Shown: positions 536 to 59,444, counted from the whole stretch's first letter. The stretch: DNA of 63,973 bases, filler included, from Stramenopiles sp. TOSAG23-2 (GCA_900128395.1; 15 parts of 15 records of this genome joined end to end with filler, not necessarily neighbours in it); one strand, 5' to 3'. Notes: generated by a model not told the origin, from the sequence alone. Numbers and translations are program-made.

Positions 536-1414
536 ATGAGCCAAGTAGTTGATTCTTCATCCTCACACCCTTTGCAAAAGGACGTAGGAAAAAAAATACA
601 GGATGAGATTGAGGATGATGATAATAATAATAATAATACAACCAATGATAGCGAGAAGAATAATACGGATATATCTATTGACGTAAATATTGATAATGAG
701 AATGATAATTGTCTTGATAATGTGCATAATGGTGGTGATAATAATAATAATAATAGTATAGTCAATAATATAAATAAGGATAATAATAATAACAAAAAAG
801 ACACCATCACTATTATTAACAACGAAGTAGAAGAGGGTGAGGAGGAGGATGATGATAATATAGTTAAAGAATGTCGAATATGTACAGGAACGGAAGGTAA
901 ATTTATTGCCCCATGTAAATGCAACGGCACTACGAAATATGTCCATTTAGACTGTTTAAGTAAATGGATAAGAACACGGCCAGGCGTCCGACATCCAACA
1001 GAGAACCTTGTTATTCCAAATCTTAAATGTGAGATATGTCATGATGAATATAAAGTTCAACTCACACGAAAGTTTACATGTAGTTGTAAAATTATTCGCA
1101 CCTGGCATACTTGTTTTCACATTTCCGAAGCAGTTATCTTGTTAATGTCCTTAGTTGCTATGTTATCGTTAATTGTCAGTGTAGGAACCGATGTCAATGA
1201 TGCAGAAGAATCCGAGAAAGTATTATTGATGATTTTATTTAGTATGACTGGATTGATGACATTATTAGCTATATTTAAAATTTATAAACGATGGAAGTTT
1301 GATGTGGAAGAGATTACTATTGAAAGCATTGAACCAAACCAACAACGTAGGCCAATTGAAGAAGTATTAATTGGTGAGACTGTTTTAGGTGGACATAGAC
1401 CAACCTTTCCATGA
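536..1414 (+). CDS. RING-CH (MARCH-type) E3 ubiquitin ligase with two transmembrane helices
   Basis: CRIC...PCKCNGTTKYVHLDCLSKW...CEIC is the C4HC3 RING-CH pattern; two hydrophobic segments follow; Asn/Asp-rich N-terminus. Confidence 0.9.
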   Translation: MSQVVDSSSSHPLQKDVGKKIQDEIEDDDNNNNNTTNDSEKNNTDISIDVNIDNENDNCLDNVHNGGDNNNNNSIVNNINKDNNNNKKDTITIINNEVEEGEEEDDDNIVKECRICTGTEGKFIAPCKCNGTTKYVHLDCLSKWIRTRPGVRHPTENLVIPNLKCEICHDEYKVQLTRKFTCSCKIIRTWHTCFHISEAVILLMSLVAMLSLIVSVGTDVNDAEESEKVLLMILFSMTGLMTLLAIFKIYKRWKFDVEEITIESIEPNQQRRPIEEVLIGETVLGGHRPTFP

Positions 1415-1733
1415 TACGAAACGATGGGTGCAGGCATGCGACGACGACAATACTGTCTAGAGGCAAAATAATAATTCACTCTGTTGTCCAGGCTGTAAGA
1501 GCTTTATTTTTTTTTTTTATATTAATTTTATTATATATTAGGTCTATTATATTATATATATATTATATTTTATTATAAATTGAGGAGTCTTTACTCAAAA
1601 TTCCACACCGTACTAGTACGTCTTTCATGAATACAAAGATCTTGCTTTTCTAGACACCTAAAAATCCACACACCACAGTACATAAAGATACACAAGGTAG
1701 GGAGGGCTTCAAATTCAAAAACATTTTTTAATA

Positions 1734-4166
1734 ATGTATTGCATTTTGCGCGTAACCTTTACAGTTATAATACTTTTCACCACGAACGTTGTGGGGGCAA
1801 GTTTTTCTAACTCCCCGCTCAAATCTGATGCAACTGGTACGATTTTTTCAGGCAAGAAAGTACAGAAGTTTATAGGAGCTTTACATTTTCAAAACGACAA
1901 AAGGGCTAGAAAAAATGTCAACCCTAATAGTATTTTTCCAATATTTTCAAAAGATTGTAAGAATTGGGCAGTTGTAACAACGATTAACCACGCGACAAAT
2001 TCAGTAAAAAGAGTAGCCAGCTTGGTAAGCTGGTGTCTTGTGATAGTGGGGGACAAACAAACGCCACCTGCATTCATGAACGCTAGTGGTTTGTTAGGTA
2101 ACGACAATGTAGTTTTCTTGTCGTCAGAGGATCAGCAATCTATCCGCAATAGTTTTGTTCAGTCTATTCCATATCGAAGCTTTGCGCGCAAGAATATTGG
2201 GTATCTATTTGCTATTAAACATGGAGCCAAAACAATATTTGATTTTGATGACGACAACTTATTGCTTCCCAAAAACGGGAGAGCGGGTGGATTTTCCTCT
2301 CCGATCGGATCGATGGTCTCAAAAAGGGCGTCTCAAAAGATAATGGTCAGGTATCTAAGCAGTACAGAGAAATCCATCAAAGTGTTTAATCCTCACCCAC
2401 TTATGAATACTTCAGTAGAAAACACTTGGCCTCGTGGGTTTCCATTGTCTCAAGTTCTCAATAGAAGTAGTAGTGGGTCTGGTAGAAACGTATTTGTGGG
2501 TGCAGTTCCGCGTTCATCAGTAGCGGTTCTTCAATATGTAAGCGATGGAGACCCTGATGTGGATGCTATATTTCGTTTAACAAGACAATTGCCTTTCACG
2601 TTTAATAGTCAAACCAGGGCACAAAAGCTGCTTATTCCTAAGCAAGCATATACACCATACAACGCACAATCCACAGTGCATTTCTATAATGCTTTTTGGG
2701 GAATGTTGCTTCCCCATTCGGTACCTGGGCGTGTTTCAGACATTTGGCGAGCTTACATTGCTCAAAGAATATTTAAAGACCTACATTTGGAAGTGATATA
2801 CGCACCACCTTTAGTGTTTCATGACAGAGCCCCCCATAATTACATGGCCGACTATCAAGCAGAAAACTATTTGTACACAAAAACTGATGCCCTACTAACT
2901 TTTTTACATAACTGGGACCATTCTTCTGATAATTTATTATCAAGAATCGAAATGTTGTGGGTTACACTGTATGAACACGACTTTATTGGATACAAAGATG
3001 TCCTTAGTTTACAATCATGGCTTCTCGCTCTGATAGAGGTGAAATACACTTTTCCTAAACTCCCCACTGTGCCATGGCAAGACCCTGTGCCCCAGGGTGA
3101 ACTCCACAGCCAACCCTATATGACAACTCCTGCGTTCAATTTTGGAGGTCCTTTTGGTAATGCCACTTACTTAGAGTTTGCAAAAACAGATTATGGGTTG
3201 AAATCGATGCTAGAAGTGTGGGAAATGTGGATGTCCAGCAAAATAACGACAAACGAAAGACCGAAAGAGACTATTATTAAAATAATTTTGATAACAAAGA
3301 ACGAGTGGCCTTTGCTACGACAATGGACTATATACCATGGCGAATTAATTGGTTTCGAGCACTTGTATATATTAGACGGGAGTACCGATTCCCGTTGCAC
3401 TTCCTTTCTCGTTAATGTTAGGGATCACCTTGGTGTAAATGTAATCTTTACACCAACAAATCTAAATGGTCTCAACACAGAAATTACCAAAATTGCAAGA
3501 AATATTTCCGTAGCATCGGATGCTATACTTAAGCTAGATACAGATGAATTTTTGGGTATAATAACAAAAGATAGTAAGTGCAAAGTTAGAAATCATACGA
3601 GTTGTCCTCTATCTCCTTATGGGGTAAGAGAGTTACTCCAAAAGTCTGTTGACCTCGAAGGACATATAAAGGGGCATTTAATGAATGTTTCCTTTTTATG
3701 TTTGCCATCCGAGGTAAAAAAAGTGTGCCAAGCACATGGTAAAGACGATATTTCTCTGTTTTCGCTGGTATGTGGAAAAGTAGGTAGTAGGTATGCAGAA
3801 AATTTCCCCCATGCTGCCTATAAAGCGGTATATGATTCACGGACTTTATGGTCTATTCAGATTGGGGGCCATGTCGAAATACTACCAACCCCAAATGGGA
3901 ATTACTTAAAAGGAGTAATTGCGCCGTTTGATTCTCTTCCTACAGAAAGGCCTTTTCCTTTAGGAATATTTCATTTCCATGTGCGTTGTGTAAAAGAAAT
4001 GGTATCAAAAGCTCGGGATATCTTAGTTAATCATGGGTACATAGATAACTCGGACACAGAGACGAAAGTGCTAGAAACATATAAAGCCTTGTTTCCAGGG
4101 AAAAATCTTTGTTCCTTGAGTTGGGACGACCTCTCTTCCATAAACGTTAAAGTATGCCCTCCTTAA
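1734..4166 (+). CDS. STELLO/DUF288-like glycosyltransferase fused to a GT2-like domain (3' end possibly spliced/incomplete)
   Basis: N-terminal hydrophobic signal; WAVVTTIN, VIVGDKQTP, RKNIGYLFAI, DFDDDN, WPRGFPL, DPDVDAIFRL, RVSDIWR motifs typical of STELLO; second module TKNE..LRQW..YH..GFEHLYILD..LDTDEF typical of GT2-like domains. Confidence 0.8.
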   Translation: MYCILRVTFTVIILFTTNVVGASFSNSPLKSDATGTIFSGKKVQKFIGALHFQNDKRARKNVNPNSIFPIFSKDCKNWAVVTTINHATNSVKRVASLVSWCLVIVGDKQTPPAFMNASGLLGNDNVVFLSSEDQQSIRNSFVQSIPYRSFARKNIGYLFAIKHGAKTIFDFDDDNLLLPKNGRAGGFSSPIGSMVSKRASQKIMVRYLSSTEKSIKVFNPHPLMNTSVENTWPRGFPLSQVLNRSSSGSGRNVFVGAVPRSSVAVLQYVSDGDPDVDAIFRLTRQLPFTFNSQTRAQKLLIPKQAYTPYNAQSTVHFYNAFWGMLLPHSVPGRVSDIWRAYIAQRIFKDLHLEVIYAPPLVFHDRAPHNYMADYQAENYLYTKTDALLTFLHNWDHSSDNLLSRIEMLWVTLYEHDFIGYKDVLSLQSWLLALIEVKYTFPKLPTVPWQDPVPQGELHSQPYMTTPAFNFGGPFGNATYLEFAKTDYGLKSMLEVWEMWMSSKITTNERPKETIIKIILITKNEWPLLRQWTIYHGELIGFEHLYILDGSTDSRCTSFLVNVRDHLGVNVIFTPTNLNGLNTEITKIARNISVASDAILKLDTDEFLGIITKDSKCKVRNHTSCPLSPYGVRELLQKSVDLEGHIKGHLMNVSFLCLPSEVKKVCQAHGKDDISLFSLVCGKVGSRYAENFPHAAYKAVYDSRTLWSIQIGGHVEILPTPNGNYLKGVIAPFDSLPTERPFPLGIFHFHVRCVKEMVSKARDILVNHGYIDNSDTETKVLETYKALFPGKNLCSLSWDDLSSINVKVCPP

Positions 4167-4193
4167 GTTTCTCCTTGTTTATATTTATTATAA

Positions 4194-4293
4194 NNNNNNN
4201 NNNNNNNNNNNNNNNNNNNNNNNNNNNNNNNNNNNNNTTAATTAATTAANNNNNNNNNNNNNNNNNNNNNNNNNNNNNNNNNNNNNNNNNNNN
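4194..4293. other. Artificial contig spacer (44N + TTAATTAATTAA + 44N); first of 14
   Basis: Identical 100-bp spacers start at 4194, 8487, 12779, 17066, 21341, 25615, 29889, 34162, 38427, 42691, 46955, 51217, 55476 and 59725; the linker has stops in all six frames; contig lengths never increase along the window. Confidence 0.99.
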
Positions 4294-4350
<57 letters not shown>

Positions 4351-4800
4351 AAAAAAAGGAGGGCATGCCAGCAGCCCTGGGCCAGCATGCAAGAGCACAA
4401 GAGAGTGCGCAACAAAAAATAACACCACACCTTTGCCAGGTGTTATTTTTTTCGAGTTTGAGTACGGTCACAGCAGTTTTCTCCTCGCTGCACAAACTTA
4501 TAGACTTAGTAAATTATAACCATAATCCAGATATCTAGAATAAATCAGTTATTTAATACGTAATGCTATTTTATGTAATTATAATAGTGCTAGCCAGGCT
4601 AGCAACAAAAAACTCTTCATAACTGGTACAGTTTCTGGTCGGTAGTCTATTATATATCAGATATGCATACATTTATAAGAAATAATAGAATAAACATATT
4701 AATACTATACAAACACAATATTATATACATATATTATATATTATATAAAATATATTATATATTATATATATATATAGTAAATAGAGAATTAGATAAAACA

Positions 4801-7800
4801 ATGACATCATTAATAGCAGAGGAAATCGGGGATAATAACAAGAACGGAATGACAAATACATTATCACCTGGTATAATTAATAATACTAATAATATGGAAT
4901 TAATAGAATATGATGTAAATAACGACGAAGAGTTAAAAAGGATAAGAAATAGTATCCAGAATATGGATATTAATGGTGGCGTATATACTGGTGAACCACC
5001 AATAGATATGACACCGTCAAAAATCAAATCAATACCCAATTTAGTAGTTGAATTAGAAAAAAGAGCGGGTTCCAAAGATGTATGGGAAATGCGTGCGGAA
5101 CAAGTTTATAATGCGTTTACATCTCCAAAACCACCCTCAAAAGAAGAATTTTTTGAGCTTATGGAGAATTTAATGCCTTTAACAACAGAGCAAACAGAAG
5201 ATGCAGTTTCACTGCTGAGTCAACGATCAAAAGTGTCGAAAAGAATAGCATTTGGTGGCCTGTCTAGTCGAAGGGGAATCTCTAGCTTCTCTCCATCATC
5301 TTCGCCAAGTAAGAGTTATAATAGAAGTAATAATAAATATAATAGTAACGACGATTTTTTTGATAAAATGTTAAACGAAGCAAGTAATTTATCATCAGGA
5401 AGAAAAAGAACTACAAAAACGGATGCCATCGGCAATACAATAGTTAAAAACAATAAACGAACCAATGTTAAGTCCTTTTTAAATAATAACAACAAGAAAA
5501 ACTATAATAATAACAATATTGCAATAGAACAATATAAATCAAAGACACCATCACTTCATGAGCTTGCAACTGGCAATTCAGCTGTTTATTTGAATAGAAA
5601 TAATAGAGATAATAATATGAATGATATCAATAATAATAAACAAAATAATGAGGGTAGTACAAAAATAGAAATAAAAACACCGTCAGCAGATATGATGAAA
5701 AAAAGCAATAACAGTAACAAAAAAAATAGTTTACAACCACAATCATTTAATAGTCCAAATACTCGTCTATCTCTTGTAGATTTACTGACAAGTAGTCCTA
5801 GAAACGTTAAAGATGAAAATCTACCAAACCATTTATTAAGTGCATTGAGAAGGCATATTCGCAGAAGAGCATTAACAATCCCATCACTTTTTGCAATGTG
5901 GGATAAGACGAGAGATGGTTTATTAACGAAACGAAATTTAAAAAATGGACTCTTAAATTTGGGAATTGAAACTACTACTGAAGAGATAAATAGATTTTTT
6001 GATTATTTAGATGATGAAGGTACTGGCCGTATTACACTGAAACGTTTTATGAGGGTATTAAAATATAAAACACGCTTTGGATCTCCAAATCCATATATTT
6101 TAACTGGCAAGCCTGGGACGAAAGATGATGGTAGCAACAATAAAGAGAAATCATCTGAAGTTGAACGAAAAAATAATGATGTGAGTGGAAAAGGTTCTAA
6201 GTTACTAGACGCAGAAGAGGCCAGAGTTGCAAGCATATATAGGAGACTATCAATGACAGAGACGAAATCATCAAAAGAATGGCTTCAATTGAAAGCGGAG
6301 GATAGGTTATTAGGTGATGGAGGTAGAGATCACCGTGGTGCAGAGGATCCAACACCTCGTGCATTATTGGCAAAGATACGTGCAAGAATGAAGCGTAGAA
6401 CGTTGCAAACTTCTCAATTTTTTTCATATTGTGATAAGGATAGAGGTGGTGAAATTTCAGAAATGGAATTGGCTAATGGTATGAAATATTTAGGTATGGA
6501 ATTAACGTCAAAACAATTAAAAACACTTTGGAAAGTAATGGATATTGATGGCGATGGACGTATATCGTTCATGGAATTTAAATTAGCAATAGACGTTGCT
6601 GGTTCTGGACCGACAATGGCTTTAATTAATCATGAAGAAGAAGGTGGCGATACATCCGGTACGTTTGCCCCAATTTTGCGAGCTTGTGTGATGCCATTAA
6701 GATTAGAGAAATTAAGGCAGAAATTACGTGCTGCTGCATATGTATGGGAAGGAGAGAATTTGCAACAGTTGTTTGAGAAGTTGGATATACACAAAGAAGG
6801 TTATTTACCAGCACAACGTTTTAAACAAATCGTTAAAAGTATTTACCCGATGAAAACAGAGGAATTAAATGCAGTTTACAAATTAACTGATAAAAAAAGT
6901 AAAGGTAAAGTTAGCTATGAAGATTTTGAAAACTTTATTCATGGTGAAGGTGGTGTAGCACCAAATGGTCTTGTTATAAAACAAAAAGCAAAACCAAAGC
7001 CAAAGGAAAAAAGTTTAGGAGAGATATTAATATCCATGCAGAAGCAACAACAACGTACGATTTTATTAAATCCACCATTATTTTCGGGCATTTATGTATC
7101 TGAGAATTCTGATAAAGGTGTTAAGCAATTGTTACTACAATTTCGACTTATCGGTTTCGATATTACAGCAAAAGATGCAAAGAAAATTTTGGATACGTTT
7201 GGAACTGAAAAATCTAGTTTTAAATTGTTGCATAGTATTTTAGTTGCGAAAAAAATTATCGCCTCCTCATATATTTCAAATTTAGATGAATTAATACGCA
7301 GATTTGAAAAATACGATCATAGTAATAATGGCATTGTATCCATTAAAAATTTTGAGAAAGTGTTAAATCAAGTTATAGAATTAAACGCTGTAGAATCGAA
7401 ATTATTGTTGCGAATTTTAGATTATAATGATTCAAATTCAGTTGCGTATAAACATTTGTTTGAGTTTTCAAGGGATGAAATTGATTCATTAGAAATCCCA
7501 CCGCCAGAAATGAAAACAGTTGAACTACTAAAACCAAGAAATGACTCAATTGCATCTAATTTAACTATGAAATTAATGCGTTTGAAACATTTGGTAAGTC
7601 GCAGTGATGCAGCTGGTGGTCAATTAAATCTAAAATTTTTAAGAAAAATGGATAGAAATATGGATGGTATATTAACGAGGGAAGAGTTATACAAAGGTGT
7701 TGACCATGAAGCTAAATTAGATGGTGTTTATATGACAAATAAACAGGTTGAAGAAGTTCTAGAAATATTAGATGCAAAAAAGTCAGGAATAATTAAGTTA

Positions 7801-8082
7801 TCGAAGTTGGAAATATTTGAAAAATTAGATCTTATTCGATGTAAATTAAAAGCAAATACATATTCGCACGATGGTAAAGATCCAAGCTCAATTTTTCGCC
7901 TTATATCTCGTGGTGAAGAAGAAATCGATTTAGACGATTTTATTGAGACATTAAATCGCATATGTCATTTATCTGGCGGTGAGCTTGGAATGTTGTTGCA
8001 CCAAGTTGATATAAATGACGACGGAACTATTAATAAAGATGAATTTGCTACATTTCTTAAAGACATTAGAGTTTTAGAGTAA
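4801..8082 (+). CDS. Large multi-EF-hand calcium-binding protein
   Basis: Many EF loops (DKTRDGLL, DDEGTGRI, DKDRGGEISEME, DIDGDGRISFMEF, DRNMDGILTREE, DINDDGTINKDEF); ATG 4801 preferred over 4663 because the upstream stretch is AT-repeat, intergenic-like sequence. Confidence 0.85.
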   Translation: MTSLIAEEIGDNNKNGMTNTLSPGIINNTNNMELIEYDVNNDEELKRIRNSIQNMDINGGVYTGEPPIDMTPSKIKSIPNLVVELEKRAGSKDVWEMRAEQVYNAFTSPKPPSKEEFFELMENLMPLTTEQTEDAVSLLSQRSKVSKRIAFGGLSSRRGISSFSPSSSPSKSYNRSNNKYNSNDDFFDKMLNEASNLSSGRKRTTKTDAIGNTIVKNNKRTNVKSFLNNNNKKNYNNNNIAIEQYKSKTPSLHELATGNSAVYLNRNNRDNNMNDINNNKQNNEGSTKIEIKTPSADMMKKSNNSNKKNSLQPQSFNSPNTRLSLVDLLTSSPRNVKDENLPNHLLSALRRHIRRRALTIPSLFAMWDKTRDGLLTKRNLKNGLLNLGIETTTEEINRFFDYLDDEGTGRITLKRFMRVLKYKTRFGSPNPYILTGKPGTKDDGSNNKEKSSEVERKNNDVSGKGSKLLDAEEARVASIYRRLSMTETKSSKEWLQLKAEDRLLGDGGRDHRGAEDPTPRALLAKIRARMKRRTLQTSQFFSYCDKDRGGEISEMELANGMKYLGMELTSKQLKTLWKVMDIDGDGRISFMEFKLAIDVAGSGPTMALINHEEEGGDTSGTFAPILRACVMPLRLEKLRQKLRAAAYVWEGENLQQLFEKLDIHKEGYLPAQRFKQIVKSIYPMKTEELNAVYKLTDKKSKGKVSYEDFENFIHGEGGVAPNGLVIKQKAKPKPKEKSLGEILISMQKQQQRTILLNPPLFSGIYVSENSDKGVKQLLLQFRLIGFDITAKDAKKILDTFGTEKSSFKLLHSILVAKKIIASSYISNLDELIRRFEKYDHSNNGIVSIKNFEKVLNQVIELNAVESKLLLRILDYNDSNSVAYKHLFEFSRDEIDSLEIPPPEMKTVELLKPRNDSIASNLTMKLMRLKHLVSRSDAAGGQLNLKFLRKMDRNMDGILTREELYKGVDHEAKLDGVYMTNKQVEEVLEILDAKKSGIIKLSKLEIFEKLDLIRCKLKANTYSHDGKDPSSIFRLISRGEEEIDLDDFIETLNRICHLSGGELGMLLHQVDINDDGTINKDEFATFLKDIRVLE

Positions 8083-8173
8083 AAATGTTTGTGTTGTGTG
8101 TAATATCCAAAATATGACTATATATATGTCTACATATATTAATGGTTAAAATCTGAGTTAATAATAATTTTAC

Positions 8174-8392
8174 ACTTCTCGTGTTAAGTAGTATATATGC
8201 TCAATACTCAATCGCAAGAATAATATTCTATCCTACTATTAGTAAAGCTCTAATGCACCTCTGCAAACTAATACTCTAAAAGCACGAGTAGGATTCTATC
8301 CTTCCGTGCGCAGTAGTTGAACGCGCTGGACGTCGGGTTCATTCGAAAACGGTGAGGTTGTCGATGTGAAAGATCCTGTTGTGAACAACAAC
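8174..8392 (-). ncRNA. Candidate structured non-coding element, copy A (homolog of 21662-21892)
   Basis: Reverse-complement homolog (roughly 80% identical by eye) of 21662-21892 on another contig; no conserved reading frame; conserved stems; strand inferred from G-U wobbles. Confidence 0.45.
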
Positions 8393-8411
8393 CGGTGACT
8401 TTATATAGTAT

Positions 8412-8486
8412 AATTAATGCGCAATAACTTATTTTTTAATTTACTCATGATAATTCCTACTCTCCAGAAAGAATACAATAACTGAG
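8412..8486 (+). repeat. Dispersed ~60-80-bp repeat, copy 1
   Basis: Core TTTAATTTACTCATGATAATTCCTACTCTYCARAAAGAATA recurs at 25556, 33795(-), 37663 and 38600(-). Confidence 0.9.
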
Positions 8487-8587
8487 NNNNNNNNNNNNNN
8501 NNNNNNNNNNNNNNNNNNNNNNNNNNNNNNTTAATTAATTAANNNNNNNNNNNNNNNNNNNNNNNNNNNNNNNNNNNNNNNNNNNNA

Positions 8588-10270
8588 TCCAAAGCACGTG
8601 GTGTAGTATTTAAAACAAATAATAGTTATGCAAACAAAACAGTTTCATCACCAAGGTTTTTAAGTGTTGCCACGGAAAAAATTGGTTTAGATAAATTAGG
8701 TATCAATGGCCCAGAAACAATTTACCACAATTTATCATACGATGATTTGTTTGAACATGAAGTGAAAAACAATGAAGGTGAAGTTGCAAAGGCTGAATAT
8801 GGTAATACTTTCACTGTTGATACTGGTAAATTTACTGGACGTTCTCCTTCAGATAAATGGATTGTTTTAAATAAAGGAAGTGACTCGGAAAAAAATATTT
8901 GGTGGGGTGCTGTAAATCAACCAACTACACCAGAAGTTTTCGATGATTTGTACGAGCAAGCAAAAGCATTGTTCAATCGCCAAGAGGAATGTTACGTGTT
9001 TGATGGATATTGTGGCGCAAACCCAAAAAGTCAAAAAAAAGTACGTTTCGTACATCAACTTGCATGGCAACAACATTTCGTAACAAATATGTTTATCCGG
9101 CCAGAAACACGCGAGGAGTTAGAAGGTTTTGAACCAGATTTTACCATCATCAACGCATGTGCAGAAACAAACGCGAAATGGAAAGAGCACAATTTAAATT
9201 CCGAAGTTGCTATTGCATTCAATTTAGAAGAACGTGTTGCTGTTATTTTCGGCACATGGTATGGTGGTGAAAATAAAAAAGGTATTTTCAGTTTAATGAA
9301 CTATTGGTTACCATTAGAAGGTATCATGCCAATGCATTGCAGTGCGAATGTTGGTAAAGATGGCGATTCCGCATTGTTTTTCGGCCTTAGTGGTACTGGG
9401 AAAACAACGTTAAGTGCAGACCCTGCAAGATATTTAATTGGCGACGATGAGCATGGTTGGGATGAAGATGGCGTATTTAATTTTGAAGGTGGATGCTATG
9501 CAAAAACGATTAATTTATCGGAAGATACAGAACCAGAAATTTACCGTGCAATTAAACGTGATGCTATGTTGGAAAATGTACATTTAGGGGATGACAATGT
9601 ACCAGATTATTTCAATGTCGAAAAGACACAAAATGGACGTGTTAGTTACCCAATCTTTCACATTCCAAATTACCACGAACCGCAAATGGCAGGCCATCCA
9701 GATAATATTATCTTCTTAACGTGTGATGCATTTGGTGTATTACCACCAGTCTCTAAATTAAGTTCTGGACAAGCTATGTACCATTTCCTTTCTGGATATA
9801 CCGCAAAAGTTGCAGGTACAGAACGTGGTGTAACGGAGCCAGAAGCAACTTTTTCTGCATGTTTCGGTGCTGCATTTTTAACGTTGCATCCAACAAAATA
9901 TGCTGATTTATTGCAAACCAAATTGGAAAATCATGGCGGTACTGCATATCTAGTAAATACTGGATGGACTGGTGGTGCATATGGTACGGGTGAACGTATG
10001 TCCATCAAAGCAACACGTGCATGTATTGATGCAATTCTTGATGGTAGTATTAAAAATGCAAATTTCAATGAGGATCCAAACTTTGGTTTTGAAGTACCAA
10101 CTGAATTACCAGGTGTTCCAGCAAATGTATGTAACCCACGCGATGCATGGAGTGATAAAGATGCATATGATGCACAAGCAAGTAAATTAGCTGGTATGTT
10201 TAAAGAAAATTTCGTTAAATATACTGGACCAGGTGTTACTGATTACACTGAATTTGGACCAAAAGTTTAA
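8588..10270 (+). CDS. pckA: Phosphoenolpyruvate carboxykinase (ATP), 5'-truncated
   Basis: [38 protein letters not shown] (P-loop), [18 protein letters not shown]; frame open back to the contig start at 8588. Confidence 0.97.
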
Positions 10271-12261: not shown

Positions 12262-12700
12262 CTGTTGTTCCTCTCACTTAAACTCACAATGGTTCCACTA
12301 CGAACATTTATCGAGTCCGTAATATTATTATATATATATACACACTGCATTCCATTTTAAAAACGAAATATCTGTTGTTCCTCTCACTTTAAACTCACAA
12401 TGGTTGCAATGGTTCCACTACGAACATTTATCGAGTTCGTAATATTATTATATATAAATATATACACACTGCATTCCATTTTAAAAACGAAATATCTGTT
12501 GTTCCTCTCACTTTAAACTCACAATGGTTGCAATGGTTCCACTACGAACATTTATCGAGTTCGTAATATTATTATATATAAATATATACACACTGCATTC
12601 CATTTTAAAAACGAAATATCTGTTGTTCCTCTCACTTTAAACTCACAATGGTTCCACTACGAACATTTTATCGAGTTCGTAATTATTATTATATATATAT
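12262..12700. repeat. Tandem array of 110-124-bp units (~3.7 copies)
   Basis: Units start CTGTTGTTCCTCTCAC at 12262, 12372, 12496 and 12620; near-identical throughout with no unique spacers. Confidence 0.92.
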
Positions 12701-13764
12701 CGGGCGACTTCTTACAACAAAAACAGGCTTTATGCCAAGGCTAGGAAAGAAAATTACGACAACGGAGATTGTTCACCANNNNNNNNNNNNNNNNNNNNNN
12801 NNNNNNNNNNNNNNNNNNNNNNTTAATTAATTAANNNNNNNNNNNNNNNNNNNNNNNNNNNNNNNNNNNNNNNNNNNNTGTTAGAGTACTTAAAACTATA
12901 GTATGGAGATTTTTTGTTATTTTCTATAGTATGGTAATTCTCCCTATGAAGTGTTTTTAATATATGGAAATAGCATGTAGAAATTAGCATGGAGATAGTT
13001 CTTTCAACATTTTACTTGTGAAAATGGTGTTTTTCTGACATGTTTTCTGTTTTTCATTTCCTATCATATTTATACTTAATATAGTCCTTTTCATATACTC
13101 ACTAGATTTGTAGTGTTTGATATATTTGATAGGCCAAATTAGGCATTTTTTGTACTTGAGGCAAAATGTACATTTTCCATACTATTCTTCAGACCTTTTT
13201 TTTTTATTTTTATTATTCTAGCCTGGCTAGAATTGCAACTGCAATTATTATGAATCTTTTCTTTTTTTTCTTTATCTTTTTTGCTAAGAATTACTATATT
13301 ATCCTCGAACACACACACACACACATACACACACACACACACGCTACATACAAGTGATTATAAATTATTCTTTTCTATTATTATTTTTTTTAAATTCTTC
13401 CGGAGACACGATATTATACCTTAAAATACGAAAACCCGAAAACCCTTAACCCTTAACAGATCCCAGGGATCTCGATCTAGGTCATCCTGGGCTGGTATTA
13501 TCCTTATGGTATTAATCCATGTAAATATGTAAATACGAGATTGCCAGAGGATCAACGCACCAACATTATTATTGGCCATTTTAGATCTATTATTATTATT
13601 CTAGTAGAATTATTATCAGGGAACTCTGAATGTAGTATTGTACATACTGATTATCATGTAGAATTAAATCGATACACGGTCGATTATATACATACATTAA
13701 ATTATATCAAATTATAGTATATTAATTAGATTAAAATTAGCAAGACAATAAAACAAAAGGAATC

Positions 13765-20386: not shown

Positions 20387-20616
20387 AAAAATTTACTTGA
20401 CATAAATTTCTACATCATCAACACCCCATGATTGTTTACATGCATCATTTTCAGACATAAAAGCGCCGAAATTAATTTTAACTGTATTACTATTATGTGT
20501 TAAAAATTTACTTGACATAAATTTCTACATCATCAACACCCCATGATTGTTTACATGCATCATTTTCAGACATAAAAGCGCCGAAATTAATTTTAACTGT
20601 ATTACTATTATGTGTT
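20387..20616. repeat. Exact tandem duplication, 115 bp x2, covering a gene 3' end
   Basis: 20387-20501 is identical to 20502-20616. Confidence 0.95.
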
Positions 20617-21320: not shown

Positions 21321-21661
21321 GGTGTGTGTTTTATATATAANNNNNNNNNNNNNNNNNNNNNNNNNNNNNNNNNNNNNNNNNNNNTTAATTAATTAANNNN
21401 NNNNNNNNNNNNNNNNNNNNNNNNNNNNNNNNNNNNNNNNATGAAAGTTCGTACGTACGAGAGAGTGGGGATATTTTTTCTGCGTTTTAAATCATCAAAT
21501 CATACGAAGTAACTATGTCCAGGGGAGCAAATATATAAATGTATATATATGTACATGTACGTACGAAGTATATACGGAGATTCGTATTATATTTAGTATG
21601 ATAGTAAAAATAAGAAAAAGAAAAATCATATTTTTAAATATGATAAAATTAAATATTCGTA

Positions 21662-21892
21662 GTTGTTGTTCACAGCAGGATCTTTCACTTTGACAGCCTC
21701 ACCACTTCCCGAGTGAATCCGACGTCCAGCGCGTTCAACGACCGAATACATGGAAGGATAGAAACCTACTCATGCTTGTATTATAGATAGTATTAGTTTG
21801 CACACGTGCATTAGAGCTTTACTATATCATAGTAGGATTGAATATTATTCCTGAGATAGAGTATTGAGCAATTAGTATTTACCATGGGAAGT
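21662..21892 (+). ncRNA. Candidate structured non-coding element, copy B (homolog of 8174-8392)
   Basis: Homologous to the reverse complement of 8174-8392; long-range stem ACTTCCC (21704-21710) / GGGAAGT (21886-21892); inner CCTACT/AGTAGG stem. Confidence 0.45.
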
Positions 21893-22109
21893 ATGATACG
21901 GTTCGTAAAAATTATTTTTAAATATTTTTACGAGCGTACATAATTCGTATATTTGAATATATGATGCACTATCAGTAGATTATATATTTATCATATATAT
22001 AATATATATATGATAAATATATATTGTAGTTAATATATATAATACGTCGTACTCGTATAACTTAGATTTTAACCAAATCTTACGGCTTCGTATATTATAT
22101 TCGTTAAAA

Positions 22110-23870
22110 CTACAACTCTTCCTTTCTCTTCCCATTATTATTTTTCAATTGTTTTTTCAATTTTTTACCAATTTTCTTCTCCTTATTTAACCAATCTGGT
22201 ACTTTTAATTTCATTCCCTTGAAATTTTTTGCTAAACGGTTGATACATTTTGGATATACTAATCCACATAAATTTTGATTTGCTAATTCAATAGATACAA
22301 CACCTTTGCATACTAATATAGCTTGAAATATCAGCCCATTCATTGCTTTATGTGTACTTAATTGTTTATTAAATGCTCTTACTAAATCACCTGGGGATAT
22401 CATTTGACTATATCGATCCATATCTGGGAGCTTTTGTATATCTTTCTCTTTTAAACATACAGCGGCGGTCCATACTTGACTTTGTGGCTGCCATAACGCT
22501 GCTTTTACCCATTCGTTTACATGCCCCACATGCATCAATAAATCTTGTGCATAGGAAATACTATCTTGCAAACTTAACGATGTGCGATAATAACCAACTG
22601 GTACATATACAATTTCTCCAGCTTCTTGTGAACATTCCCATATTTTATTCTTTGCATTGATTTCCAATCCTTCATCATCTTTCAATTCAGACATTTTATC
22701 TTCGAAAAAATTAAATGCAGTACCATATCCATCTTCCAACTTGAATTTGCTGTGTTGTTTTTGCCCCATAACAAATATACGTCTCGCACCATGCACTAAT
22801 CCATCTAAATTTGGTACTCCCGTATAAACCATGGATGTACCACTACCAGCTGGACCAAACCGGATCTTTCGACTATCTTTTGCTTGATATTGGGCTTTAA
22901 AATTAGCGACATTTTCCACTAAATCTGACATTCCATTTGCAGTTGTAGAATTAATAGCTTTTAATAATTTACGTGTCGCCACATCCATTACTGATTTTAA
23001 CGCAATACCACCAACTGCTTCAATAGATACACCATCAATAATTTCATCGTCACCAAAATGCAATGCTGGTACTACTTGCTCACAATACTCCGTATCTGTA
23101 CCAGTTTTTTTAGTATTGCCAAAACATTTTGCAAAATATTCTGCTGGTGGTACCATTTGGGGTTGCAACATTTCTACTGTTTGACCAGCTTCAGGATCAC
23201 GTTGACCTTGCATTTGCATTTTTGCCATCATAGGACTTAAATATTTAATAGTACTATTTTCTTTTTTTCTTAAACGTGATAACTGCCACAATTCACGCAA
23301 TCGTTTAAAATCTCCATCTGCGCCAACAATTTTAAACGGTGAATGGATACTTACTTCACCTTTTTCCCATTTTCCTTGAAAATCATTGTAGTTGTACGTA
23401 GGAAAATTGCATTTTTGTGCTTGCATCGATGATTTTAATGGTCTTGTCCTTCGTCTTCCAGCTGAAAAACTAATTGCATCTTCGCTTTCCTCGTGGTCTG
23501 GTGTTGCGCCACCTTCATCTGACGTCGGTGTATTTTTCGATTTTGATGGTGTTTTATTAGCTTCTTTTTTTTTCATATTACGATGATGACCTTCCAATTT
23601 CTGTACCGCAGCACGTAGTGAAATCAATAATGGTTCAGCAATTTTTTCTTTTTTACCATACTCTAATAATTTTTTTGCACCATTTAATGTATCTTCAATC
23701 TGTGTTGATTTTACTTTTAATTGTAATGAAAAATGATTTAATGCATTTTTCTTTTTTTTACTTCTTTTTTTTGCATGAACTATTAGATTGTTATTATTAT
23801 TAGGTAATATTGTACATACTATTACGATTATAGTTAGTAGTATTGATTGAAAAAAGATCGAACGTTTCAT
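22110..23870 (-). CDS. Secretory-pathway JmjC-like (JMJD8-like) protein with C-terminal KEEL
   Basis: Signal peptide; FGPAGSGT, LVHGARR, WECSQEAGEIVYVPVGYY...LQDSIS cupin/JmjC motifs; KEEL ER-retrieval-like end. Confidence 0.7.
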   Translation of the reverse strand: MKRSIFFQSILLTIIVIVCTILPNNNNNLIVHAKKRSKKKKNALNHFSLQLKVKSTQIEDTLNGAKKLLEYGKKEKIAEPLLISLRAAVQKLEGHHRNMKKKEANKTPSKSKNTPTSDEGGATPDHEESEDAISFSAGRRRTRPLKSSMQAQKCNFPTYNYNDFQGKWEKGEVSIHSPFKIVGADGDFKRLRELWQLSRLRKKENSTIKYLSPMMAKMQMQGQRDPEAGQTVEMLQPQMVPPAEYFAKCFGNTKKTGTDTEYCEQVVPALHFGDDEIIDGVSIEAVGGIALKSVMDVATRKLLKAINSTTANGMSDLVENVANFKAQYQAKDSRKIRFGPAGSGTSMVYTGVPNLDGLVHGARRIFVMGQKQHSKFKLEDGYGTAFNFFEDKMSELKDDEGLEINAKNKIWECSQEAGEIVYVPVGYYRTSLSLQDSISYAQDLLMHVGHVNEWVKAALWQPQSQVWTAAVCLKEKDIQKLPDMDRYSQMISPGDLVRAFNKQLSTHKAMNGLIFQAILVCKGVVSIELANQNLCGLVYPKCINRLAKNFKGMKLKVPDWLNKEKKIGKKLKKQLKNNNGKRKEEL

Positions 23871-25393: not shown

Positions 25394-25555
25394 AAAGCAT
25401 TTTACACATATCACATTTTTTAAAAATGTGCTCCTTTCAAAACGGAACGCACGCAAAAAAATGGATTTTGACATTTTATAGAAGTGACGCTGTGTGAACA
25501 CATTTTAAGTCCGGCTGAAGACATATGGCTATTAAGAGTAAAACATAATTTAGTC

Positions 25556-25614
25556 TACGCATAATTTATTTTTAATTTACTCATGATAATTCCTACTCTT
25601 CAAAAGAATAAAAT
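25556..25614 (+). repeat. Dispersed ~60-80-bp repeat, copy 2 (cut by contig end)
   Basis: TACGCATAATTTATTTTTAATTTACTCATGATAATTCCTACTCTTCAAAAGAATA. Confidence 0.9.
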
Positions 25615-32060: not shown

Positions 32061-33422
32061 ATGAAATTTACATCAGTATTATTAGCGACTCTTATGGTGC
32101 TTGCCGTTGGGAACGGGAAAAGGACATGGATGTCACCAAAATTAAATGAAAAAGTCAAAGGAGAAATCACAGAAAATGATCCAACTGGATTGTGCGATAC
32201 GGTAAAGTCAAAAGCTGGTTATTTTAAAATAACTGGCAGCAAAAATAAAAATTACTTTTATTGGTATTTTGAAGCAAGAAATAATCCAGAAACAGCGCCA
32301 ACTATATTATGGATGACGGGTGGACCAGGGTGTAGTAGTGGTATTGCGTTATTCAAAGAGAATGGGCCTTGTAAAATTGATCCAAATCATGATGACCAAA
32401 CATTGAAAAATACATATGGATGGAATACTAACGCAAATATTGTTTACATTGATCAACCAGCTGGCGTTGGTTTCAGTTATGGAGATACATCTGATGCAGA
32501 CCATGACGAAGCTGAAGTTGCTGAAGATATGTATAATTTCTTACACGAATTTTCCGAAGCGAATAATAATCTGTTGAAAACAAATGATTTCTTTATTTTT
32601 GGAGAGAGTTACGGAGGTCACTACGCCCCTGCAACAGCAAATCGTGTTGGTAATTCTCTCAATTTAAAAGGTCTTGGTGTTGGAAATGGTTTAACCGCAC
32701 CAGAAGTTCAATATACTTCATACCCAACAATGGCATACAATTATTCCATTGAGGTTACTGGCAAGCCATCAGTTACTTTGGAACAATACGAAGCAATGAC
32801 TGAAGCCCTTCCTGGATGCCTTGATAGCATTAAATTATGTCAAAAACATGGTGGTGATTCATGTGCAAAATCACAAGCAATGTGTAATGGTGCTTTACTC
32901 AATCCATATTACGAAACAGGATTAAATCCATATGATATCCGTGAAAAATGCAAAGTGAAGCCTTTATGTTATAATTTCACAGACGTTGAATTCTTTTTGG
33001 ATATGCCATCTACACAAGCAAAATTAGGCATTCCAAATCATATTGAATGGCAATCTTGTAATTTTACAGTCAATGCTGCATTTGCAAATGATTGGATGGA
33101 AAGCTTTTCATATACAGTACCAAATTTATTGAAATTAGGTGTTCGTGTATTGATTTATGATGGCGATATGGATTTCGTTGTAAATTGGATTGGTGATAAA
33201 GCATGGACATTAGCTTTGGATTGGCCAGGAAAAGATTCGTTCAATAATTTGACAGATGTTCCATACAAAGGAGCAGATGGAAATATTGCATGGTATTCAA
33301 GAACTTTTCAAGGTTTTACCTTCATGCGTGTTCATGATGCTGGGCATATGGTACCATTGGATCAACCATTAAATGCACTTGATATGTTGGATAAATTTTT
33401 AAATAATCAACCTTTTGTTTAA
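32061..33422 (+). CDS. Serine carboxypeptidase (peptidase S10, CPY-like)
   Basis: WMTGGPGCSS, DQPAGVGFSY, GESYGGHY (catalytic Ser), GDMD (Asp), AGHMVP (His); signal peptide from ATG 32061. Confidence 0.96.
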   Translation: MKFTSVLLATLMVLAVGNGKRTWMSPKLNEKVKGEITENDPTGLCDTVKSKAGYFKITGSKNKNYFYWYFEARNNPETAPTILWMTGGPGCSSGIALFKENGPCKIDPNHDDQTLKNTYGWNTNANIVYIDQPAGVGFSYGDTSDADHDEAEVAEDMYNFLHEFSEANNNLLKTNDFFIFGESYGGHYAPATANRVGNSLNLKGLGVGNGLTAPEVQYTSYPTMAYNYSIEVTGKPSVTLEQYEAMTEALPGCLDSIKLCQKHGGDSCAKSQAMCNGALLNPYYETGLNPYDIREKCKVKPLCYNFTDVEFFLDMPSTQAKLGIPNHIEWQSCNFTVNAAFANDWMESFSYTVPNLLKLGVRVLIYDGDMDFVVNWIGDKAWTLALDWPGKDSFNNLTDVPYKGADGNIAWYSRTFQGFTFMRVHDAGHMVPLDQPLNALDMLDKFLNNQPFV

Positions 33423-33573
33423 AAAAAGAGTATATAATACTGTAGTATACTAGTGAACGAAAGAAGAAAGGTAATGCACTTGATATGTTGGATAAATTTT
33501 TAAATAATCAACCTTTTGTTTAAAAAAAGAGTATATAATACTGTAGTATACTAGTGAACGAAAGAAGAAAGGT
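33372..33573. repeat. Exact tandem duplication, 101 bp x2, covering a gene 3' end
   Basis: 33372-33472 is identical to 33473-33573. Confidence 0.95.
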
Positions 33574-33794
33574 ATTTTCTTTTAGTTGCTTCACGAAGAA
33601 AAAGAAACCGCATATATGATATAGTGCTCTTTATAATATTAAAAAGAAGAATTAAAAATTAAGAGTGCGTTTTAATAAAATACGAACCGCGTATGTATTT
33701 TTTAAAAAAGTAAACACACATCATACGAATCCCGTAAAATCTTTTAAAATATTATTATGGGAATATCAACACATTAGTGTGAGATTAGATTATT

Positions 33795-33877
33795 TCAGTT
33801 ATTGTATTCTTTTGAAGAGTACGCTTCGTAGGAATTATCATTGAGTAAATTAAAACAATAAATTATGCGTAAATTAA
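33795..33877 (-). repeat. Dispersed ~60-80-bp repeat, copy 3 (with a small insertion)
   Basis: Reverse complement of the core with an inserted TACGCTTCGTA mini-palindrome. Confidence 0.85.
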
Positions 33878-34262
33878 ATTTATTAAACATACGTCTCTTC
33901 TCTCTCGTACGAATGATATCTCACATATATATATATAATCTTTTTGTGTAATCTTTTTTGATCTTTTGTGTACACGGGGATATAAAAATATGAAATATAC
34001 ACGAACCGGCATATACGCAATTGTCTCGTCGCTTGTATGATATATATATAAAAACTTTTAAGTCAAATGCTCACCTCTTTTTTTTGCTAAATGTAATTTT
34101 TCCTCCTCTGTTAAATTGCTTTTTAACCATGCACGTCTTTCATCATATTCTTTACGTTTATNNNNNNNNNNNNNNNNNNNNNNNNNNNNNNNNNNNNNNN
34201 NNNNNTTAATTAATTAANNNNNNNNNNNNNNNNNNNNNNNNNNNNNNNNNNNNNNNNNNNNT

Positions 34263-37583: not shown

Positions 37584-37662
37584 TGATTGAATTATTTGAA
37601 ACATCCAAATAGTTTAATTCTGATAATTGCGCTAAACTTGTTGGTAATCCATATATATATTT

Positions 37663-37733
37663 AATTAATGCATAACTTATTTTTTAATTTACTCATGATA
37701 ATTCCTACTCTCCAGAAAGAATACGATAACTTG
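37663..37733 (+). repeat. Dispersed ~60-80-bp repeat, copy 4
   Basis: Nearly identical to copy 1 (ATAACTTATTTTTTAATTTACTCATGATAATTCCTACTCTCCAGAAAGAATAC). Confidence 0.9.
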
Positions 37734-38599: not shown

Positions 38600-38666
38600 T
38601 GTATTCTTTTGAAGAGTAGGAATTATCATGAGTAAATTAAAAAATAAATTATTATGCGTAAATTAA
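38600..38666 (-). repeat. Dispersed ~60-80-bp repeat, copy 5
   Basis: GTATTCTTTTGAAGAGTAGGAATTATCATGAGTAAATTAAAAAATAA is the reverse complement of the core. Confidence 0.9.
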
Positions 38667-55575: not shown

Positions 55576-55630
55576 CCATTGTTATTAGTTTTAAAATGAA
55601 TATGTTGTACAAAATTCCGGAATTATTCAT
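55576..55630 (+). repeat. Left inverted repeat (inner part)
   Basis: CCATTGTTATTAGTTTTAAAATGAATATGTTGTACAAAATTCCGGAATTATTCAT is the exact reverse complement of 59390-59444. Confidence 0.95.
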
Positions 55631-55737
55631 TTTATAAATATATATGTTATGAAATATATTACTATATAAGTTATGGAGTAAAGATACAGTAATTTATGTA
55701 AATATTTCTATCTATATACTGTAACATTATATAGACA

Positions 55738-56937
55738 ATGAGTTCAACAACAAAGAATAATTCACGGACTAACTATCGTCGTTATCAACGACAAAGACCG
55801 CATGAAGTGCAAATAGGGAATGATTCGTTACCAATACATGTGAAACGTATGCCATTAACCGACTTGAAAATCCAAGCAGAAATGTTAATATTTTACTTTG
55901 AGAACAGACCGAAGCCAATTCGTTGGTGCTCCGACAAACGTGGTTTAAGGAATGGGGCACCACATAGAGTTAGCAAAAGCACGTTGCAACGATGGAAAGA
56001 CCATTATTTGTTATATGGTGAACCCCCAGCAATAACGAAAAGGTATAAACGAAAATCTGGTCGATTAGGGTTGACAAGCCAACAGCAAAAGCTTTTAAAA
56101 AAATTAGCATTGCAAAATCCAGAAAGTTATTTAGATGAATTGCAACAAAAAATGATAGCACATGGAATGCCTAAAATACACCCCACTACAATCTATCGAT
56201 ATCTCAAACGAGAAGGATTATCATTAAATAAGCTAAAAGAAATCGCTAGAGAACGCAGCGAACTTGAACGAGCAAATTATTATAAGAGATTGGAAGGGTT
56301 GGACTACAAGATGTTCATATATATGGACGAAACTGCGAAGGATAAACACGCAGGAAGAAGAAGAAGAGGTTGGGTACGAACTGGATCAGATAGTAGTATT
56401 TTAAAAAGGTTTAAGCGCGTTGAAGACCGTTTTACATTATTAGCTGCATTAAATTACAAAGGATTTGTTCCAAATGCGTGTTTGAAAGTAGATAGGACTA
56501 AAGACAATATAGATACAGATATGTTTAATTATTATTTAACAAACTTTTTGATTCCTGCAATGGGAAATTTTTCACGTGGGGAAGAAAATTCGATATTAAT
56601 TATCGATAATGCTCCAATACATGATCGATTAGAAATTATACGCCTTGTTGAGGAAGCAGGGGGAATTGTGATATTCACAGCTAGATATAGCCCTGACATA
56701 AATCCAATAGAGTATGCATTTAACTTATATAAAAAATTATTGAAACGGTTTCATATGTTTGATTCTGAACTTGCGCATCAATTGGCATTAGGTGGAATAA
56801 CAGAAGATGATTTGGGTAAAACATTTAAACATTGTTTACCTTTTCATAATATTGATTTGCCATTGGAATCTGATGATGATGATGAACTTATTGAAGATAT
56901 TATTATTCGCAAAGTCGTAAATAAATACATTGTATGA
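55738..56937 (+). CDS. IS630/Tc1-like DD34E transposase
   Basis: HTH-like segments (VSKSTLQRW; YLDELQ..IHPTTIYRYLKREG); catalytic FIYMDET, IIDNAPIH, YSPDINPIE with 34 residues between the second D and E; intact frame. Confidence 0.93.
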   Translation: MSSTTKNNSRTNYRRYQRQRPHEVQIGNDSLPIHVKRMPLTDLKIQAEMLIFYFENRPKPIRWCSDKRGLRNGAPHRVSKSTLQRWKDHYLLYGEPPAITKRYKRKSGRLGLTSQQQKLLKKLALQNPESYLDELQQKMIAHGMPKIHPTTIYRYLKREGLSLNKLKEIARERSELERANYYKRLEGLDYKMFIYMDETAKDKHAGRRRRGWVRTGSDSSILKRFKRVEDRFTLLAALNYKGFVPNACLKVDRTKDNIDTDMFNYYLTNFLIPAMGNFSRGEENSILIIDNAPIHDRLEIIRLVEEAGGIVIFTARYSPDINPIEYAFNLYKKLLKRFHMFDSELAHQLALGGITEDDLGKTFKHCLPFHNIDLPLESDDDDELIEDIIIRKVVNKYIV

Positions 56938-59389: not shown

Positions 59390-59444
59390 ATGAATAATTC
59401 CGGAATTTTGTACAACATATTCATTTTAAAACTAATAACAATGG
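59390..59444 (-). repeat. Right inverted repeat (part matching the left copy)
   Basis: Exact reverse complement of 55576-55630. Confidence 0.95.

Follow-up and report, generated by a model that had tools for sequence, protein, structure and literature searches.

What are the two similar stretches that lie on separate contigs of this genome? The window, by which we mean the whole 63,973-nt stretch of DNA that was analysed, consists of 15 contigs, each of about 4.2 kb and with a G+C content of 30 to 40%, with runs of N between them. Positions 8174 to 8392 on the minus strand of contig 2 (copy A) and 21662 to 21892 on the plus strand of contig 6 (copy B) had been read in a first-pass annotation as a novel structured multicopy RNA, a ribozyme or SINE-like element, or a transposon-associated guide-RNA scaffold, shared by two unlinked contigs. 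The reported reverse-complement likeness of about 80% is real and far above chance: blastn aligns the two stretches at 80.7% identity over 233 nt (E 4.8e-54), and the sequences that flank them do not align with each other. We believe, however, that copies A and B are very probably dead-on-arrival, 5'-truncated copies of a very abundant non-LTR (LINE-type) retrotransposon. Each consists of about 33 C-terminal codons of that element, a stop codon, and a 3' untranslated region (UTR) of about 155 nt, and the host is an AT-rich, intron-poor marine eukaryote.

The core stretches of the two copies coincide with those initially reported, but their true spans are larger. An nhmmer model of 575 positions, built from the longest copy with one iteration, was run over a set of metagenome loci and the window. 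Copy A occupies 8141 to 8401 (minus strand) and corresponds to model positions 320 to 574 (E 1.2e-105), thus lacking the 5' part and reaching the common 3' end of the family; it is 90% identical over 259 nt to the metagenome locus L052. Within it, positions 8296 to 8397 (minus strand) hold the last 33 codons and the TAG stop (8298 to 8296) of the family's long open reading frame (ORF), in frame, and the translation ends in the residues RTEG before the stop, matching the C termini of the family proteins P0001, P0002, and P0109. The remaining 155 nt or so (8141 to 8295, minus strand), delimited by the position of the stop and by the terminus that the family shares, form the 3' UTR, in which most positions are at least 90% conserved across copies and which contains the CCUACU/AGUAGG and UGCA-N4-UGCA pairings proposed earlier.

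Copy B is the older or more diverged of the two, and its coding remnant is frameshifted by indels. The statement that indels break any reading frame thus holds for copy B and for the comparison of the two copies, between which indels do occur, but not for copy A, which remains in frame for its last 33 codons and stop. The 5'-truncated body of copy B (21662 to 21916, plus strand; model positions 329 to 553, E 3e-76 by nhmmer) is split from its terminus by an AT-rich insertion or expansion at 21917 to 22055 (plus strand), within which a 26-nt palindrome is found at 21976 to 22028. The displaced 3' terminus follows at 22056 to 22075 (plus strand) and is identical to that of L052 at 20 of 20 nt. 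At several positions, judged from the letters read in other copies, copy B is closer to the family majority than copy A. A tentative target site duplication (TSD) of copy B is an 8-mer at 21653 to 21660 (plus strand) that recurs at 22097 to 22104 and occurs only these two times in 21441 to 22300; its 3' copy lies 21 nt beyond the terminus rather than adjoining it. Copy A has no unambiguous TSD.

Both copies lie tail to tail with a gene. The 3' end of copy A is 58 nt past the stop of a gene on the opposite strand that encodes an EF-hand protein of 1139 amino acids, and the terminus of copy B is about 30 nt past the stop of an opposite-strand ORF of 586 amino acids that has no assigned family, which points to tail-to-tail insertions into short intergenic spacers. 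These neighbors offer nothing to the proposed TnpB/Fanzor guide-RNA scaffold, and the element's own ORF models as R2-like (see below). The window also holds a third fragment of the family, at 12692 to 12778 (plus strand), which derives from a more 5' portion of the coding sequence (88.5% identity to L052 over 87 nt; 81% to residues 297 to 322 of P0002 by tblastn) and ends at the edge of contig 3. Directly 5' of it is a tandem array (12287 to 12697) of a 124-nt unit in 3.4 copies with 94% match. Copies A and B, the third fragment, and several copies of an unrelated repeat discussed below all lie near contig ends, probably reflecting assembly breaks at repeats.

Outside the window, copies are very numerous. 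The region from 7000 to 8486 is represented in runs of 14 studies, mostly labelled as marine or seawater metagenomes, and at least 121 metagenome loci carry one exact 19-mer of the element. Four public runs, two of DNA and two of RNA, were compared with 7300 to 8486 at 80% likeness; the depths summed over 8140 to 8486 in this comparison represent many distinct repeat-bearing contigs and are not copy numbers, and contigs from the RNA runs are no proof of transcription; neither depth ratios nor gaps in RNA-contig cover are taken here as measures of expression level or copy number. In DNA run X1, the flanking gene had a depth of 81 and the element a summed depth of 11,125 to 104,903 per bin (215 records); in the second DNA run, X2, the corresponding values were 3.36 and 1.88 to 18.8 (11 records). 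The RNA runs gave 8.9 to 15.4 for the flanking gene and 139 to 1,441 for the element in X16 (152 records), and 0 to 3.1 and 609 to 9,263, respectively, in X20 (160 records). Copies A and B therefore belong to a high-copy dispersed repeat and are not a two-copy element. Insertion density can be very high locally: at L071 (about 2150 to 2230) and L090, copies lie within about 50 nt of each other or are nested.

The anatomy of these copies is that of a retroposon. The nhmmer model gave 146 matches, 109 of which extend to model position 565 or beyond, that is, to a common 3' end; of the 37 that fall short of it, 15 are cut by the end of the locus, and the other 22 are internal. In the 94 copies with both flanks available, a count that includes near-duplicate loci (one place represented in different assemblies), 5' starts are scattered over model positions 7 to 522, with two starts at 7 and 22 and a gap between 27 and 187. 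Beyond either end, the flanks of different copies are unrelated. After removal of near-duplicate loci, 28 of 87 copies shared a word of at least 9 nt between the 5' and the 3' flank, compared with 12.3% of mismatched flank pairs (n = 7,482), and none of 1000 permutations attained the observed mean or count. These TSDs vary in length from 9 to 15 nt and mostly adjoin the junctions. Of 63 copies, 21 had a (TA)4 tract no more than 20 nt from the 5' junction and 13 had one equally close to the 3' junction, as opposed to 23 of 882 control stretches located 60 to 200 nt away (Fisher p 4e-15 and 1e-7, respectively). A clear TSD or (TA)n tract is seen in only about a third of the copies.

Two loci, L055 (60 to 460) and L098, have an inverted 5' segment (model positions 26 to 314) head to head with a direct 3' segment that starts at about model position 373 to 377, the layout given by twin priming. 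Copies carry a specific conserved terminus in place of a poly(A) tail. Likewise, the varied 5' ends leave no repeated terminus, i.e., no long terminal repeats, and a search of 8090 to 8486 around copy A for inverted repeats of at least 12 nt found none and thus no terminal inverted repeats. Taken together, the fixed 3' end, the scattered 5' starts, the TSDs, the twin-priming layout, and the (TA)n tracts at the junctions form the signature of target-primed reverse transcription. This anatomy also identifies the strand that runs minus through copy A and plus through copy B as the RNA-sense strand, in agreement with the strand chosen in the first-pass annotation. Two interpretations of the ends were abandoned on the way: that the element is only about 570 nt long with its true 5' end near model position 7 to 26, in view of longer forms of the ORF, and that a loose end in the comparison with public runs is a polypurine tract, in view of the variable 5' starts.

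On this sense strand, one frame is open from the start of the model to a conserved TAG. At L052 (1286 to 1960), it forms an ORF of 225 amino acids; the two longest proteins of the family in the database, of 414 and 437 amino acids, share 90% and 82% identity with it, respectively, and are encoded on contigs of only 1617 and 1649 nt. P0111 overlaps the N termini of these two proteins, adds about 225 amino acids upstream, and agrees with P0008, implying that the family ORF spans at least about 650 amino acids. Among 1.8 billion representative sequences, 106 relatives were found at E of 0.001 or below, all of them fragments of 46 to 243 amino acids and most covering the C terminus, as expected of truncated repeats; no relatives of 766 to 2185 amino acids were found, nor any protein longer than 437 amino acids that includes the C-terminal part. 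In 22 of 28 copies, the last 26 to 35 codons are free of stops, and length differences between subfamilies are in frame. Hence, the conserved G+C-rich core of the original finding, as read on the sense strand, is coding sequence. For copies A and B, it is the decayed coding remnant of a retrotransposon ORF.

Searches for known protein families gave little. Pfam searches with the ORF parts P0001, P0002, P0109, P0111, and P0008, outside which the N-terminal part of the ORF lies, gave nothing above threshold and no reverse transcriptase; the best row for P0111 was DUF4745 (E 0.007), which is below the cut-off of that family. NCBIfam returned nothing relevant for the family protein, and scans of genome and viral contigs with P0002 yielded no relative. 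Weak leads from the ESM Atlas, which agree with the structural comparison below, were zf-RVT (0.88 and 0.80) and the thumb/linker of Prp8 (0.84). A YLDD sequence in P0065 was considered as a reverse transcriptase motif and rejected, being not conserved in the family. At L025 (963 to 1631, minus strand), a second family matches the main one in layout and, at 27% identity (tblastn E 6e-15), in its C-terminal domain; its ORF is separated by about 250 nt from a main-family copy. This paralogue shows that two or more diverged lineages of the element exist in the organism.

What kind of protein the ORF encodes was approached through structure prediction. Neither sequence nor profile comparison with PDB chains gave anything significant, the chance rows being a match to the expression tag in 4ghj and an ACP synthase (E 0.09). 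A first AlphaFold model, of P0002 with a fragment-rich alignment (A4; pLDDT 57.6), was set aside, having only generic helical matches and no R2 match with either aligner. A second model was made of P0109 with a cleaner alignment (A5) of 19 relatives, including families of 20 to 34% identity. It has a mean pLDDT of 50.6 with a moderately confident core, and its predicted topology comprises a helix (residues 116 to 141), three strands (146 to 150, 165 to 169, and 172 to 185), a second helix (221 to 243), and a further strand (252 to 259). Among 48,161 PDB chains compared by VIA-align, the first and second ranks were taken by R2 proteins: R2Tg (9dou_A, residues 1045 to 1390; Z 9.4, rmsd 3.4 Å, 159 aligned residues) and R2Bm (8ibw_C, residues 794 to 1107; Z 9.3, rmsd 4.2 Å, 182 aligned residues). 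Other PD-(D/E)XK nucleases and the endonuclease-like region of Prp8 came next, at Z 7.1 and below. Foldseek placed R2 entries at ranks 1, 2, 5, 6, 12, and 13, with E of 0.18 or worse, which is not significant, and sequence identity to the R2 proteins within the structural alignments is only 10 to 11%.

In the sections of PMC4838377 that deal with the R2 protein, its endonuclease is described as having a PD-(D/E)XK-type fold and as lying C-terminal to the reverse transcriptase and a CCHC motif in one protein, with the motif series CCHC, RH, PD...D/E, K..KY, and RG.W. By eye, alignment A5 has, in the same order, a Cys/His cluster, a helix with H[ND]xV, two strands with one conserved D each, then a helix with KLRKY or KNRLY, and, beyond the strand that comes next, G-x-F; the P before the first D is not conserved. 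The C-terminal part of the ORF is predicted to fold like the linker and restriction-like endonuclease (RLE) of R2, a link that we regard as moderate only. Judged from the model, the element is probably of the RLE type and among the R2-like groups.

How does the family compare with these groups? The portion of PMC4640811 devoted to RLE clades names CRE, R2, R4, NeSL (including Utopia and Togen), and HERO, of which the first four are mostly target specific; HERO contains many nonspecific families and some that are microsatellite specific, and Togen families specific for (TG)n are also described there, their position relative to HERO and NeSL being left unresolved by that source. Precise 3' but varied 5' boundaries are noted in the same portion for such elements. 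Copies of our family likewise end precisely on the 3' side but start at varied 5' positions and, as in RLE clades, lack a poly(A) tail, and the apparent preference for simple-repeat DNA, here (TA)n, recalls the microsatellite-specific families of HERO and Togen. As in R2, the C-terminal part of the ORF models as a linker followed by a PD-(D/E)XK endonuclease. In contrast to RLE clades, the family reaches a very high copy number and is dispersed in gene-dense DNA, beyond the genes for rRNA, spliced leader, or snRNA, and, in contrast to RLE targets, a (TA)n tract is found at only about a third of its junctions; the Cys/His motif before the nuclease is, by eye, spaced otherwise than in R2.

Resemblances to other retroposons are also apparent. 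Like L1-type (APE) LINEs, the family shows 5' truncation, TSDs of variable length, AT-rich targets, and inverted 5' segments of the twin-priming type, all of which are typical of L1. It differs from them in its lack of poly(A) and in a C-terminal domain whose model resembles a restriction-like endonuclease and not one of the apurinic type. Like SINEs, the copies are short, very numerous, retroposed, flanked by TSDs, and often located in the 3' flanks of genes. A SINE typically has its 3' tail in common with a partner LINE. Unlike SINEs, however, the family has no tRNA-, 7SL-, or 5S-like head, and its copies form a nested series, each derived from a protein-coding element by 5' truncation. The label "SINE-like" was therefore apt inasmuch as this is a retroposed, multicopy, transposon-derived repeat, but not for an element that is coding and without a Pol III-type head. 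A full-text literature search found no paper describing the family.

The assessment of RNA structure was complicated by the relatedness of the copies. The absence of likeness to known RNAs was borne out: no Rfam model matched anywhere in the 63,973 nt at gathering score, a relaxed Rfam search of the window region and of L052 (1450 to 2150) gave chance-level rows only (E 0.17 to 9.5), and ARAGORN found no tRNA in the window or in the six loci with the longest copies or 5' fragments. Folding energies of both strands of both copies, each set against 200 shuffles, were ordinary (z of -0.88, +0.55, -0.55, and +0.54). The pairings listed in the first-pass annotation can indeed be read as written in both copies, and over an alignment (A3) of 28 copies that span the counterpart of 8174 to 8392, 93.7% of the cells in these helices are paired. 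Their covariation did not exceed that of shuffled alignments, as 144 and 89 of 500 shuffles attained the observed values; for the enclosing stem alone, 476 of 500 did. In the long-range stem, two of six pairs are unpaired, one in 7 and the other in 12 of the 28 copies, and the U-A to C-G double change that had been taken as compensatory occurs in copy B alone (1 of 28). The proposal that these helices are kept by compensatory changes was thus not upheld when many copies were considered.

RNAalifold predicts different, local hairpins, with 57 pairs and a covariation term of -0.72 kcal/mol. By three of five measures, namely, percent paired, covariation score, and the number of cells with a double change (9), this structure surpasses every one of 500 shuffles, but related sequences, or structures derived from the same alignment, can exceed shuffles without any constraint. 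The number of pairs with a double change was attained by 178 of 500 shuffles, and the nine cells fall in only two of the 57 pairs. One of these (A-U in 15 copies, G-C in 7, and G-U in 6) belongs to a hairpin within the coding part, where both changes are amino acid changes of one subfamily; the other lies in the 3' UTR. We believe that the sequence conservation that resembled RNA structure stems from recent common descent and from constraint on the protein encoded by the source elements. As dispersed dead copies decay neutrally, a covariation test on them has little power, and by analogy with R2 the 3' UTR may possibly be structured and bind protein.

Would a multicopy structured RNA gene or ribozyme, with helices under selection, nevertheless account for these observations? 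Such a gene could explain that the listed helices can be drawn in both copies and pair in most cells of the larger alignment, that two pairs of the RNAalifold hairpins change on both sides, and that contigs from RNA runs cover the repeat at high summed depth. Yet Rfam and the folding energies (z between -0.88 and +0.55 on both strands) lend no support to it, the helices do not surpass shuffles, and the long-range stem is broken in 7 to 12 of the 28 copies; moreover, one third of the element consists of the last codons of a protein ORF, in frame, and truncation at many 5' positions would not be tolerated by a functional RNA gene. We consider this reading highly improbable, and the claim of a novel structured RNA or ribozyme is accordingly not retained. 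Hardly credible at all, and the least probable of the explanations considered, is an origin as solo LTRs or as termini of either an LTR retrotransposon or a DNA transposon. The size of about 230 to 260 nt, the multicopy nature, the location near contig ends, and a TGTTG...CAACA motif near the start of the sense strand of copy A would fit such termini, but 5' starts that vary over 500 nt opposite a fixed 3' end led us to reject the solo-LTR reading, against which also speak the variable length of the TSDs, the absence of terminal inverted repeats from copy A, and an ORF that reads right through the supposed LTR.

Two further alternatives accept the coding sequence but assign it differently. The copies might have arisen from a cellular PD-(D/E)XK nuclease gene present in many copies, as processed pseudogenes or by duplication of its 3' end, given that such pseudogenes show 5' truncation and TSDs as well and that the ORF has no Pfam family. 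However, there are hundreds of copies with subfamilies, a second family of 27% identity has the same layout, a specific conserved terminus takes the place of a poly(A) tail, and the best structural matches are proteins of retrotransposons, so that we deem this origin very unlikely. Somewhat easier to entertain, yet still unlikely, is a non-autonomous retroposon, SINE-like or devoid of reverse transcriptase, that contains only a linker-endonuclease ORF with its 3' UTR and is mobilized in trans by an unseen LINE that encodes the reverse transcriptase and has the same 3' end. This would account for the lack of a reverse transcriptase domain in about 650 amino acids of ORF, for the absence of longer proteins with the C-terminal part, the two longest being encoded on such short contigs, and for the gap in the 5' starts that sets apart the two starts near the beginning of the model. 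Against it, P0111 extends the ORF upstream of the 437-amino-acid form, so that the apparent start is not the true start, and no Pol III-type head is present. Following the arrangement of R2 in the cited sections of PMC4838377, a reverse transcriptase would be expected upstream in the same protein, and severe 5' truncation together with assembly breaks at repeats explains why long forms are missing.

The interpretation that we favor remains that of 5'-truncated copies of a LINE-type element, for which a life cycle can be outlined. The element protein would nick AT-rich target DNA, bind the 3' UTR of its own RNA, and reverse transcribe from the 3' end; copies A and B would be examples of the 5'-truncated products left when reverse transcription stops early. 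A genuine RNA structure, if there is one, would correspond to the part of the 3' UTR that binds the protein. This would parallel R2, in which, according to a figure legend in PMC4838377 and the title of PDB entry 8ibw, reverse transcription is initiated through binding of the 3' UTR RNA to the protein. More speculatively, and with the balance of probability against it, this may be an undescribed RLE LINE lineage that has been freed from confinement to rDNA and snRNA genes, seeds at intergenic (TA)n, and has multiplied to very high numbers within the compact genome of a widespread, uncultured marine protist. Conceivably, the reverse transcriptase would then use the conserved hairpins of the 3' UTR, among them the two helices that show double changes, as an RNA handle.

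The window contains other repeats as well. Abutting the 5' truncation point of copy A, at 8402 to 8483 (plus strand) and outside the retrotransposon model, is a copy of a repeat of about 70 to 150 nt that we call R. It has five copies in the window, the others being at 25546 to 25614 and 37654 to 37731 (plus strand) and at 38600 to 38665 and 33795 to 33880 (minus strand); two of the five sit at the ends of contigs, and a third is located about 70 nt from where a contig starts. In run X1, R reaches a very high summed depth (64,586 to 93,064). That R is part of the element was considered and rejected, as it occurs in both orientations and at varying distances beside retrotransposon copies in the metagenomes; it may be a MITE, the end of another retroposon, or a shared intergenic signal. 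Perfect 55-nt inverted repeats (55576 to 55630 and 59390 to 59444) enclose an ORF for a DDE_3/HTH_32 transposase (55735 to 56934, plus strand) and a 659-amino-acid ORF of no family, and a similar 55-nt inverted pair is found at 1 to 55 and 730 to 784. This inverted-repeat unit may be a Tc1/mariner-like DNA transposon; possibly, the 55-nt pairs are an assembly artefact of k-mer length, as one arm of each pair starts a contig. Self-matches by blastn further revealed 100% identical tandem duplications of 115 nt at 20387 to 20616 (contig 5) and of 102 nt at 33372 to 33574 (contig 8).

In summary, our analysis removes a candidate for a new structured RNA, whose conservation and apparent compensatory changes are accounted for by retrotransposon copies and coding sequence. 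It documents in its place that a LINE-like family with an apparent preference for (TA)n-rich intergenic DNA is very abundant in a marine eukaryote that is small and gene dense. Together with repeat R, this element fragments the assembly into short contigs, which matters for the annotation and binning of the organism.
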